Source of the DNA: a virus
Lineage: Duplodnaviria > Heunggongvirae > Uroviricota > Caudoviricetes
Length of the DNA: 28,488 bases
Reading direction: 5' to 3' (one strand)
IMG/VR virus record: IMGVR_UViG_2609460354_000008
Location: 1-28,488 of that record
Shown here: positions 25,683 through 28,090 of the stretch, in pieces
Numbering within the stretch: the stretch's first letter is position 1
Layout: every line of letters starts with the position of its first letter
Program-made: the position numbers and the translations under genes
The notes under the pieces: model-generated
Databases searched by the model: none
What the model was told of the DNA's origin: nothing
Seen by the model: only the letters and a program-made list of their open reading frames with translations

Positions 25683-26084
25683 TTATTTTAACTCATAGAT
25701 CAGACAGTCAACGATTTCTAAACCATTTACCATAGAATTAGAAACCCGAACTTTACCATCGTTGACTCTAGCAAATCCTTTTAACATTTTATAAACAAAA
25801 GCTGAATCCCCCTTAGCCTCAATTGCTTCTAATGGTATCGGCTTATACTTTTTTGATATGCTATTTCTATTTATCTCACTGATTTTTCTATATATTTCTG
25901 CCGGTCCACGTTCTGAGAAGTCACTGATAACTAAAATATATCTCCAAGATAGATCTGGGTAATAAAACCACATTGCAGCATCAATAGTTAAATTCTGTAA
26001 CTTGAGTTTTTTTAACAAAAATTGACCTGAGAATTCCATATCTTTTGTCAACTCTCTGCCGATTACCAGTGTGCTTTTACCCAT
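25683..26084 (-). CDS. Unknown 133-aa protein, downstream partner of the HEPN gene (overlaps it by 22 nt); no recognisable nucleotidyltransferase motif
   Basis: GGAG RBS about 8 nt upstream of the ATG, inside the HEPN gene 3' end; low-GC island. Confidence 0.55.
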   Translation of the reverse strand: MGKSTLVIGRELTKDMEFSGQFLLKKLKLQNLTIDAAMWFYYPDLSWRYILVISDFSERGPAEIYRKISEINRNSISKKYKPIPLEAIEAKGDSAFVYKMLKGFARVNDGKVRVSNSMVNGLEIVDCLIYELK

Positions 26085-26479
26085 TTCAAAACTCCAGAAT
26101 TTTGGTCACCTACAGCATCAAACAATTGTTCGGCCATAGCTTTACTTATGTTATTGTCGTATCTAAATTGCTCGCTCCAGTCTTTAACGACCGACCAGTT
26201 AATCTCCAACGAAACATCATTTTTTGCGTCAGCAATCAAAATTTGATGTAAGTTGGCAATTTTGAGAAGTTGCGACAAATCATGAGTATATGAATCATTT
26301 ACGACTTTTTTGTTTGGAAACTCATGTTGTAAAAATGACTTGGCAATACAGGCCTTCAATGCACATTCAACTGCATACCCACAAAGATAATATGCACCAT
26401 GAAAAAAGCCATGATCAAGCAAGCATTTGGCCTCATTAAGCCTAGTGTCAGATAATGCTTCAAGGTCGTTTTTATTCAT
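26063..26479 (-). CDS. HEPN-domain protein (138 aa), first gene of a two-gene AT-rich module
   Basis: HEPN hallmarks read by eye: helix GFFHGAYYLCGYAVECALKACIAK, THDLSQLL, and C-terminal EQFRYDN; canonical Rx4-6H not evident. Confidence 0.55.
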   Translation of the reverse strand: MNKNDLEALSDTRLNEAKCLLDHGFFHGAYYLCGYAVECALKACIAKSFLQHEFPNKKVVNDSYTHDLSQLLKIANLHQILIADAKNDVSLEINWSVVKDWSEQFRYDNNISKAMAEQLFDAVGDQNSGVLKWVKAHW

Positions 26480-26778: not shown

Positions 26779-27444
26779 TTACAGCCGTTCAGAACGTAAA
26801 TGCGTCAATACTCGACTCCACTTATCATCCTGCCACGGCCGGAATTTTACATGTGCCGTTTCTCTGGCAAGGATTTCGCGCGCCTTATGTAGTATCTGGG
26901 GATATTCTTGCTCGATGGAAGCAAAGCGACCGGCTTCGCGGTGCTCCGCAACCTGAAGAAGTAGAGTAACATTCTGGCAGGCGGTTAACATCACATCCCC
27001 TGCTCGCCATAACCAAGCAAGTGTGCAAAGTTCGTTATCAGTGAATTGTTTTATGATTGGGGATTGTTGAACTTCTCGATCGAGAATATCCAGAACCCAA
27101 CGGCGGAACTCTTTGGCTACAGGAGTGCGGGCGAACATGGCGATCAAATGGGCTCCGCGGAGAGAGAAAACGCGTACTTTCTTCTTCAAGTTTCGAGTAC
27201 TTTTCGAGGTACTCAGATCAAGTACCTCGACATCATTCTCTGAGGTACTGACTTCAAGCACTCTAGTCATACTACTGGAAAATTCGTCAGCATATTTGTT
27301 GTAAATCATCGTGACTGCGCGACTATTCGAATACTTCAGTGCTCTTGCTAGGTTGGATGAAGTTAGCCATATTCCGGCAATATTTGCCACTGGCACTAGT
27401 GCTTCACCTTGGAAGTTCAGATCTGATGTTGCTACAATACTCAT
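26779..27444 (-). CDS. Bro-N domain antirepressor-like protein (start set at Met28, AAGGAA RBS; alternative start at 27525)
   Basis: N-terminal Bro-N-like pattern (LNFQGEALVPVANIAGIW...FSLRGAHLIAMFARTPVAKEFRRWVLDILDREV); downstream of the Arc-like gene. Confidence 0.55.
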   Translation of the reverse strand: MSIVATSDLNFQGEALVPVANIAGIWLTSSNLARALKYSNSRAVTMIYNKYADEFSSSMTRVLEVSTSENDVEVLDLSTSKSTRNLKKKVRVFSLRGAHLIAMFARTPVAKEFRRWVLDILDREVQQSPIIKQFTDNELCTLAWLWRAGDVMLTACQNVTLLLQVAEHREAGRFASIEQEYPQILHKAREILARETAHVKFRPWQDDKWSRVLTHLRSERL

Positions 27445-27514
27445 GTCGATATTTCCTTCGCGGTTATTTTCGATAGAAGCCCCTAAGGTTGCCGCCAGTG
27501 GGGCTTCGCTGTTT

Positions 27515-27673
27515 CTAGCGAGCATGTATCCGTGCTCTAAATTTCAATGCCCATACAAGCGCCTGAACAATAGCTGCGTTCTCAGACATCCCTTCCTCCT
27601 GAGCAATTCGCTTGAATTCATCCTTCACTTTTTGCGGATAGCGAAGGGTAATTTTTACCTCTTTCTTTTCCAT
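27515..27673 (-). CDS. Arc-like ribbon-helix-helix repressor (52 aa)
   Basis: MEKKEVKITLRYPQKVKDEFKRIAQEEGMSENAAIVQALVWAL has the RHH beta-strand/helix pattern; GAGG RBS; divergent from the Mnt-like gene. Confidence 0.55.
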   Translation of the reverse strand: MEKKEVKITLRYPQKVKDEFKRIAQEEGMSENAAIVQALVWALKFRARIHAR

Positions 27674-27772
27674 TGACATAACCTCATGAGGCCACAATGA
27701 CACCATGAGGCCATAATGCCACCATTGAATTGATGTGGCAATATGGCACCATTCATTTTTTTGGGGGTTCCA

Positions 27773-28090
27773 ATGGCTGACAAACAAGTAAAAGACTACG
27801 ATAAGTTTAACCTCCGTTTCCCTGATGGGATGCGTGAAGCTATAGCTGAACGAGCCAAACGAAACGGGCGCTCAATGAATTCAGAAATCATTCAAATACT
27901 CCAAGATGCCATAGAAGGAAGTTCTGAACTATCTAAACGTTTAAATTTAGTTGGGTTTATTCGAGGTGACAGAGAGATACGTGACCTGGAAGATAATGCA
28001 AGCAAACTTGCGTTGTATATCGATCATAGAACACAAGAGTTTAAACAAATTTTATTGGAAGATTTAAAATTACTCCTTAATCATGATTAA
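27773..28090 (+). CDS. Mnt/Arc-family ribbon-helix-helix repressor (Mnt-like, 105 aa)
   Basis: FNLRFPDGMREAIAERAKRNGRSMNSEIIQILQDAI aligns with P22 Mnt (FNFRMP...ANGRSMNSELLQIVQDAL) and Arc; GGGGG RBS before the ATG. Confidence 0.7.
   Translation: MADKQVKDYDKFNLRFPDGMREAIAERAKRNGRSMNSEIIQILQDAIEGSSELSKRLNLVGFIRGDREIRDLEDNASKLALYIDHRTQEFKQILLEDLKLLLNHD

Follow-up and report, generated by a model that had tools for sequence, protein, structure and literature searches.

A putative three-unit operator array between divergent Mnt-like and Arc-like repressor genes in an Escherichia coli prophage

In an Escherichia coli prophage sequence of 28.5 kb (IMG/VR record IMGVR_UViG_2609460354_000008, positions 1 to 28,488; here, the window), a gap of 93 bp separates two small divergent repressor genes, one Mnt-like and one Arc-like. 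Which elements of this gap would a repressor read, and which of the two proteins would read them? A first-pass annotation had listed a perfect palindrome, a direct repeat, and an imperfect inverted repeat in the gap as candidate operators and had proposed that ribbon-helix-helix repressors bind them over divergent promoters. Our best reading, drawn from sequence comparison, is that the gap is the control region of an antirepressor module of the phage P22 immI type. It probably holds three copies of one operator (here, U1, U2, and U3), at which the Mnt-like repressor would shut off the promoter of the arc-ant operon.

The three units share a 17-bp consensus, RRGGCCA-YWW-TGMCACC, with two GCC/GGC-type half-sites whose centers are 8 bp apart. 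U1 (GAGGCCACAATGACACC, 27688..27704, plus strand) was located by a repeat finder and a pattern scan and spans about +3 to +19 relative to the predicted start of arc-ant transcription. U2 (GAGGCCATAATGCCACC, 27707..27723, plus strand) shares 15 of its 17 positions with U1 and overlies the -10 element of the predicted arc-ant promoter. U3 is inverted (27734..27750, minus strand; GGTGCCATATTGCCACA when read on that strand), is the most divergent of the three, and covers the -35 element of the same promoter. The half-sites are arranged as GCC-N5-GCC in U1 and U2 and as GGC-N5-GGC in U3. The pattern GRGGCCAYAATGMCACC, with up to three mismatches allowed, has three matches in the window, all of them within the gap; because the pattern was built from U1 and U2, it is the U3 match that is independent. 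Both repeats of the first-pass annotation are present. The direct repeat, CATGAGGCCA(C/T)AATG, occurs as CATGAGGCCACAATG at 27685-27699 and as CATGAGGCCATAATG at 27704-27718 (14 of 15 positions identical), and the inverted repeat consists of TGCCAC (27717-27722) and GTGGCA (27735-27740) with 12 bp between them. They do not stand as separate operators, however, and are instead fragments of a single U1/U2/U3 array: the repeat finder extends the former to a tandem direct repeat of 19 bp (best register, 27688-27706 versus 27707-27725, 17/19), and the inverted repeat spans 18 nt (27705-27722 versus 27735-27752, 15/18, centered at 27728.5). The units also contain GAGG-N5-ATG, which resembles the ribosome binding site and start codon of two plus-strand mini-open reading frames (mini-ORFs) that encode MTP and MPPLN (27689-27708 and 27708-27733, stop codons included); the unit sequence probably produces this resemblance by coincidence.

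The significance of the repeats was assessed with 2,000 dinucleotide-preserving shuffles of the 93-bp region. A 17/19 direct repeat was found in none of the shuffles and a 14/15 direct repeat in 2, while a 15/18 inverted repeat was found in 12; the direct and inverted repeats never occurred jointly. A perfect palindrome of at least 10 bp, in contrast, turned up in 390 shuffles. The palindrome CCTCATGAGG does exist at 27682-27691, as had been reported, but as an operator it was rejected. Its left half is made up of CCTC, the Arc-like gene's Shine-Dalgarno sequence (minus-strand GAGG, 27682..27685, read from the sequence 8 nt before the ATG at 27673), and its right half belongs to the CATGAGG flank of U1. 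Two loci whose Arc-like protein is 96% identical to that of the window (L063 and L012) keep U1 and lack the palindrome, and other relatives carry CTCC or CCTC at the corresponding Shine-Dalgarno place with no palindrome around it. We therefore regard this chance-level, unconserved palindrome as incidental.

A promoter scan predicted that the arc-sar-ant operon has a sigma-70 promoter, P_ant, at 27713..27741 on the minus strand. It has the -35 element TTGCCA (27741..27736), a 17-nt spacer, and the extended -10 element TGgCATTAT (hexamer CATTAT, 27718..27713), and transcription would start near 27706 on the minus strand. Its position is conserved in 27 of 27 representative relatives and in P22, for which the same method recovers the annotated Pant. 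A candidate promoter of the Mnt-like gene, P_mnt (27725..27752, plus strand), is weak and scored below the threshold of the scan; it was chosen as the sole plus-strand candidate that recurs in position across most classes. It would comprise the -35 element TTGAAT (27725-27730), a 16-nt spacer, the -10 element CACCAT (27747-27752), and a start near 27759. A rival candidate pairs ATGCCA (27716) with CAATAT (27739) over a spacing of 17. U3 also overlaps the P_mnt candidate, in its spacer and at the first bases of its -10 element. If this candidate is correct, the -35 element of each promoter sits in the spacer of the other, which would lead to mutual exclusion, as for Pant and Pmnt of P22. To the right of U3, a run of seven T residues (27756-27762) is kept in eight of eight close relatives, and most other classes are T-rich there; its minus-strand counterpart, an A-tract about 50 to 56 bp upstream of the predicted P_ant start, may be an UP element. 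Control of the ant promoter by LexA was ruled out: there is no plus-strand CTG trinucleotide in the 93-bp gap, and a LexA box (CTGT-N8-ACAG) is thereby missing. LexA-controlled antirepressors, of the Gifsy/SPC32H type, are known from PMC3121763.

The arrangement of units and promoter is shared well beyond the window. Viral contigs were scanned three times, with the Mnt-like protein and with two Arc-like proteins, which yielded 151 loci. Among the intergenic regions of these loci, 88 are distinct, and many different combinations of ribbon types are represented. About 50 related intergenic regions and that of P22 (accession no. X01916) were aligned on the reverse complement of the P_ant -35 element (TGTCAA; TGGCAA in the window), and all of them, P22 included, share a single frame. 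The left half of the frame contains the reverse complement of the Arc-like Shine-Dalgarno sequence, U1, U2 (over the P_ant -10 element), and a spacer of about 12 bp; the right half contains U3 (over the P_ant -35 element), the T run, and the Mnt-like gene's Shine-Dalgarno sequence with its start codon. In this frame U1 of the window occupies positions -48 to -32, and the Mnt operator of P22, Omnt (AGGTCCACCGTGGACCT), occupies positions -46 to -30. Classes differ in the spacing between U1 and U2, which ranges from 15 to 19 bp. Across eight relatives with a mean column identity of 79%, GCCA, TG, C, and CC are invariant in U1, as are U3 and the right half of U2, and positions 27736-27752 are invariant in all eight. 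The invariant U1 positions, together with nearly all of U2 and U3, thus point to two GCC-type triplets 8 bp apart.

To which protein do these units belong? The Mnt-like repressor (105 amino acids [aa]; 27773..28090, plus strand) was assigned from its ORF, its Pfam match, and its structure match: it matches the Pfam Arc family (PF03869) with an E value of 5e-20, and P22 Mnt (1mnt) is its best match among solved structures (E = 1.7e-8), followed by AmrZ (E = 1.5e-7). Its ribbon is DKFNLRFP, so that the DNA-facing residues are K, N, and R, and it carries a C-terminal extension. The Arc-like protein (52 aa; MEKKEVKITLRYP...; 27515..27673, minus strand), encoded by the first gene of the leftward operon, matches PF03869 with an E value of 1e-4, and its alignment with P22 Arc, its best solved-structure match, runs end to end (residues 6 to 52 of both); its ribbon is K-I-T-L-R-Y (K-T-R). 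Its ORF was listed as 27515-27679, and the start at 27673 is the one kept among relatives; the gap measures 93 bp with the former ATG and 99 bp with the latter. The divergent Mnt-like/Arc-like gene pair of the first-pass annotation is thus confirmed. Both proteins (the Arc-like one in its 27515-27679 form) also match chain G of PDB 9pio, an "Arc family DNA-binding protein," with E values of about 8e-4.

Units resemble other units of the same locus more than units at the same position elsewhere (permutation P = 0.0008 for U1 and <1e-4 for U3), which is the pattern expected for sites that are read by one protein. Moreover, a change in the residues of the Mnt-like ribbon that face the DNA goes with a change of unit family. 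The ribbon K-N-R, that of the window, is found with units of the family GGCCA..TGnCACC, K-V-R with GGC-N5-GCCATC, K-T-R with AAGGCA-N3-TGCCTT, K-M-R with TGTCA-N3-TGACA, R-T-R with CATCA-N3-TGATG, and R-N-R with GCACC..GGTGC. In partial Mantel tests, the correlation with the Mnt-like ribbon is 0.42 for U2 and 0.41 for U3, and that with the Arc-like ribbon is 0.20 and 0.32, respectively. For U1 the ungapped Mantel test is weak because the U1-U2 spacing varies between classes, and the best-match permutation test was used instead. Natural recombinants tell more than these correlations. Three loci (L110, L077, and L084) encode Arc-like proteins that are about 90% identical, with residues 1 to 24 the same in all, and yet stand beside three unrelated unit families and Mnt-like classes; thus, Arc-like/ant cassettes recombine independently of cassettes made of the Mnt-like gene and its operators. 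Loci L107, L102, and L115 were grouped with these three.

A further line of evidence comes from the K-V-R class, in which the Mnt-like proteins of four loci (L068, L071, L072, and L075) have the same ribbon as AmrZ of Pseudomonas aeruginosa (DKFVVR[LF]P; DKFVVRLPEGMRE in AmrZ). In the crystal structure of AmrZ with its amrZ1 operator, K18, V20, and R22 read two 5'-GGC half-sites that flank a 5-bp AT-rich linker, AAAAC (TGGC-AAAAC-GCC), and binding is by a dimer of dimers, with half-sites 8 bp apart, center to center (PMC3325190). The four loci carry three GGC/AGC-N5-GCC units, and the units of the class (GGC-ATTAT-GCC, AGC-AGAAT-GCC, and AGC-AATAT-GCC) have the geometry of amrZ1. The center-to-center distance of 8 bp in U1, U2, and U3 of the window is likewise that of amrZ1.

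Nothing comparable was found for the Arc-like protein. Neither the anchored alignment, inspected by eye, nor an exhaustive k-mer search of intergenic regions that share a near-identical Arc-like protein and differ in Mnt-like class revealed a separate Arc-like operator. The elements common to regions of the same Arc-like type are TGATGTCAAT, from the -35 box region, and TGACACCATT, each with a match of 9 of 10, and since the shuffles reach a maximum of 8 of 10, this sharing barely exceeds them. In the leader and Shine-Dalgarno region the same loci have the Shine-Dalgarno sequence alone in common, and between the P_ant -35 and -10 elements no spacer or gap element tracks the Arc-like type in the way that a distinct Arc operator would. 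The proposal that ribbon-helix-helix operators lie over divergent promoters is thus supported in part, by the homology of the module, the position of Omnt, the concerted evolution of the units, and their covariation with the Mnt-like ribbon; a split into one operator per repressor is unsupported, because nothing in the gap tracks the Arc-like protein. It is a tentative idea, to which we give a low probability, that throughout this widespread cassette family the three-site array serves the Mnt-like repressor alone in the control of P_ant and that the Arc-like protein has no operator of its own. If so, the Arc-like protein would have to act unlike P22 Arc, possibly through a generic promoter feature, through shared Mnt-like sites, or through protein contacts.

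Other explanations of the repeats have to be weighed against operators of the Mnt-like repressor. In one of them the gap would be divided as in P22, with U1 as the Mnt-like operator and the U2/U3 inverted repeat as the Arc-like operator, or, in a variant, both proteins would share the units. The Arc operator of P22 lies between the -35 and -10 elements of Pant, the place that U2 and U3 bracket, but its half-sites are 11 bp apart, center to center, versus 18 bp for the inner arms TGCCAC and GTGGCA. The two differences in 17 bp between U1 and U2 imply that a binder of one should bind the other. While the Arc-like ribbon of the window has Lys and Arg at the positions with which AmrZ reads GGC, and while Arc-like proteins with a K-T-R ribbon (TTLRY/ITLRY type) accompany GGC/GCC-type units only, identical Arc-like N termini are found beside three unrelated unit families in other branches. 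Likewise, some partial correlation between U3 and the Arc-like ribbon does exist, whereas regions with the same Arc-like type share no more than the P_ant -35 region and the second element named above. Taken together, a P22-like division or a sharing of units seems unlikely, though clearly less so than the explanations that follow.

The repeats could also be a by-product of overlapping divergent promoters with mirrored -35- and -10-like hexamers, with no repressor involved. U2 and U3 each hold a promoter hexamer, the inverted repeat is centered between the promoters, and the units score as weak promoter-like pairs (e.g., ATGACA-17-CACCAT). This explanation is improbable, given that U1 lies outside both promoters and is still 15/17 identical to U2, that, around a promoter that does not move, unit positions outside the hexamers change in concert within a locus and vary from one specificity class to the next, and that the units of the K-V-R class fit the recognition geometry of AmrZ. 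We consider action at the RNA level, by a palindrome hairpin that hides the Arc-like ribosome binding site or by a regulatory U2/U3 stem, more improbable still. The Shine-Dalgarno sequence does lie inside the palindrome, but the predicted leader fold (-8.3 kcal/mol, z = -0.67) is no better than those of shuffled sequences and the palindrome is missing in close relatives; the whole gap as plus-strand RNA folds at z = -2.3, but with both predicted starts inside the gap a transcript with both U2 and U3 is not expected, and a scan of the gap against Rfam gave no family match. Least credible of all is chance similarity in a short, compositionally biased region, which would account for the 10-bp palindrome by itself and not for direct and inverted repeats that no shuffle reproduced jointly, nor for an architecture conserved in about 50 loci.

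Several points weigh against U1 to U3 as Mnt-like operators. Linkage and common ancestry are confounders of the covariation of units and ribbon, and U3 adjoins the mnt gene; part of the conservation of U2 and U3 must be due to the promoter hexamers that they overlap. The half-sites of U1 to U3 are direct (GCC-N5-GCC), whereas the AmrZ site is inverted, although a direct orientation is permitted for ribbon-helix-helix dimers (PMC3413123). By analogy with AmrZ, the Lys and Arg of the Arc-like ribbon may allow that protein to bind the Mnt-like units as well. The mnt promoter is weak and its position uncertain. A structure-match search found no sequence similarity between the C terminus of the Mnt-like protein and the Mnt C-terminal domain. 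The C-terminal part of the Mnt-like protein has no diverse homologs. Its structure was modeled from the single protein sequence, with a predicted local distance difference test (pLDDT) score of 50; a C-terminal helix is predicted at residues 68 to 102 (pLDDT <50), and a tetramerization domain is not evident in this model, which is uninformative on that point. A literature search found no publication on these operators or this cassette.

With the Mnt-like repressor as the reader of all three units, the following mechanism can be proposed. Two overlapping, back-to-back sigma-70 promoters would drive the Arc-like gene, the sar-like region, and ant to the left and, weakly, the Mnt-like gene to the right. 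In the lysogen, the weak rightward promoter would supply Mnt-like repressor to fill U1, U2, and U3, each unit probably being bound by a dimer of dimers, as for Mnt and AmrZ. RNA polymerase would then be blocked at the -35 element (U3), at the -10 element (U2), and at or just downstream of the start (U1) of P_ant, so that the Arc-like gene and ant would be silent. U3 overlaps the spacer of the P_mnt candidate and the beginning of its -10 element and, at a high repressor level, could give negative autoregulation. What the sequences show directly are the repeats, the homology of the module, the promoter consensus matches, the agreement in position with Omnt, and the covariation with the Mnt-like ribbon; the binding, its stoichiometry, the transcription start sites, and the autoregulation are inferred.

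The genes to the left of the gap fit an immI-type module. The antirepressor gene ant (26779..27444, minus strand) encodes a Bro-N domain (E = 5.8e-9) and a P22_AR_C domain (E = 2.8e-14). Its start is probably not the listed ATG at 27525 but the ATG at 27444, which has AAGGAA 8 nt before it and fits the position of sar; in that case, the arc-ant spacer would be about 70 nt long, as in P22. Opposite the arc-ant junction, a putative sar-like antisense RNA (27446..27510, plus strand) matches Rfam RF00262 over the full length of the model with 34 bits (E = 1.8e-5), below the gathering score of 43, and on the expected strand and at the expected position; three related loci (L002, L003, and L040) have matches below the threshold at the equivalent place, and the sar of P22 itself scores 97.8 bits. 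The cassette lies in the nin region of a lambdoid phage. In the nearest phage, Escherichia phage PhiR5_1 (98% identity), it is located between ren and ninB. Just downstream of ant, an ORF with a HEPN domain (26063-26479, minus strand; Pfam E = 3e-6) overlaps a 133-aa ORF (25683-26084, minus strand) for which no family match was found. This pair is missing at the corresponding position of PhiR5_1 and may be a toxin-antitoxin or defense insert.

The exact module of the window was found in 5 complete E. coli genomes only, while a part of it is far more widespread. A block from 27691 to 27910, which comprises the units and the Mnt-like protein's ribbon-helix-helix domain and leaves out both the Arc-like gene and that protein's C-terminal domain, is shared at 85% identity with Shiga toxin (Stx) phages and with most of 292 matching genomes among 5,426 complete E. 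coli genomes, largely those of enterohemorrhagic E. coli. In the Stx phages, such as Stx2a_WGPS8 (locus L002, 2979-3223), and in prophages of enterohemorrhagic E. coli, U2, U3, and the Mnt-like DNA-binding domain are joined to a different Arc-like/ant cassette and placed among tail genes. Antirepressor cassettes decide whether resident prophages, those of Stx phages included, stay silent. With the putative operator array at hand, the switch is open to simple reporter and gel shift work, and the pairings of ribbon and operator across the family constitute a natural data set for the recognition code of ribbon-helix-helix proteins.

Among known systems, OR1-OR2-OR3 of phage lambda likewise has three related sites at which one repressor acts on two divergent promoters, with a weaker site that could be used for autoregulation. 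The analogy is a functional one: the lambda repressor is a helix-turn-helix protein and the Mnt-like protein a ribbon-helix-helix protein, and graded affinity and cooperativity are properties of lambda. AmrZ and its amrZ1 operator (PDB 3qoq) are closer in protein family (Pfam Arc) and in the Lys-x-Arg pattern of the ribbon. However, AmrZ is a chromosomal regulator of virulence genes, outside antirepressor switches; it has Val where the window repressor has Asn at the middle ribbon position, and its half-sites are inverted where those of the window are direct. P22-like phages, epsilon34 and L among them, carry "ant morons" (PMC2629481), which are, like the cassettes described here, mobile, independently regulated, swapped, and highly variable antirepressor cassettes. 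They were described from the late operon of P22-like podoviruses, whereas the window family occurs in lambdoid E. coli, Klebsiella, and Stx phages.

The closest counterpart is immI of P22 itself. Judged by its sequence, the locus appears to be a complete homolog of P22 immI, the "ant moron" of PMC2629481. A Mnt-like gene diverges from an Arc-like gene that is followed by a putative sar-like RNA and ant, in the same order and orientation; the gap is about 90 bp long in both, and the P_ant -35 elements fall in the common frame. Just downstream of the P_ant -10 element, both have a 17-bp operator of the form half-N3-half (AGGTCCA-CCG-TGGACCT in P22 and GAGGCCA-CAA-TGACACC in the window), within 2 bp of each other in that frame, and in both the two divergent promoters would overlap mutually, with the mnt promoter of the window as a weak candidate. 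The two loci differ in that P22 has a single Mnt operator and, within the Pant spacer, a separate Arc operator of 21 bp, whereas the window has three near-identical Mnt-type units. Furthermore, the candidate mnt promoter lies about 16 to 19 bp further to the right in the window, and the P22 module adjoins the tailspike gene, while the cassettes of this family are found in the nin region (window) or among tail genes (Stx phages). The logic of the switch would be the one already known from P22 immI, here with the Mnt operator in three copies.

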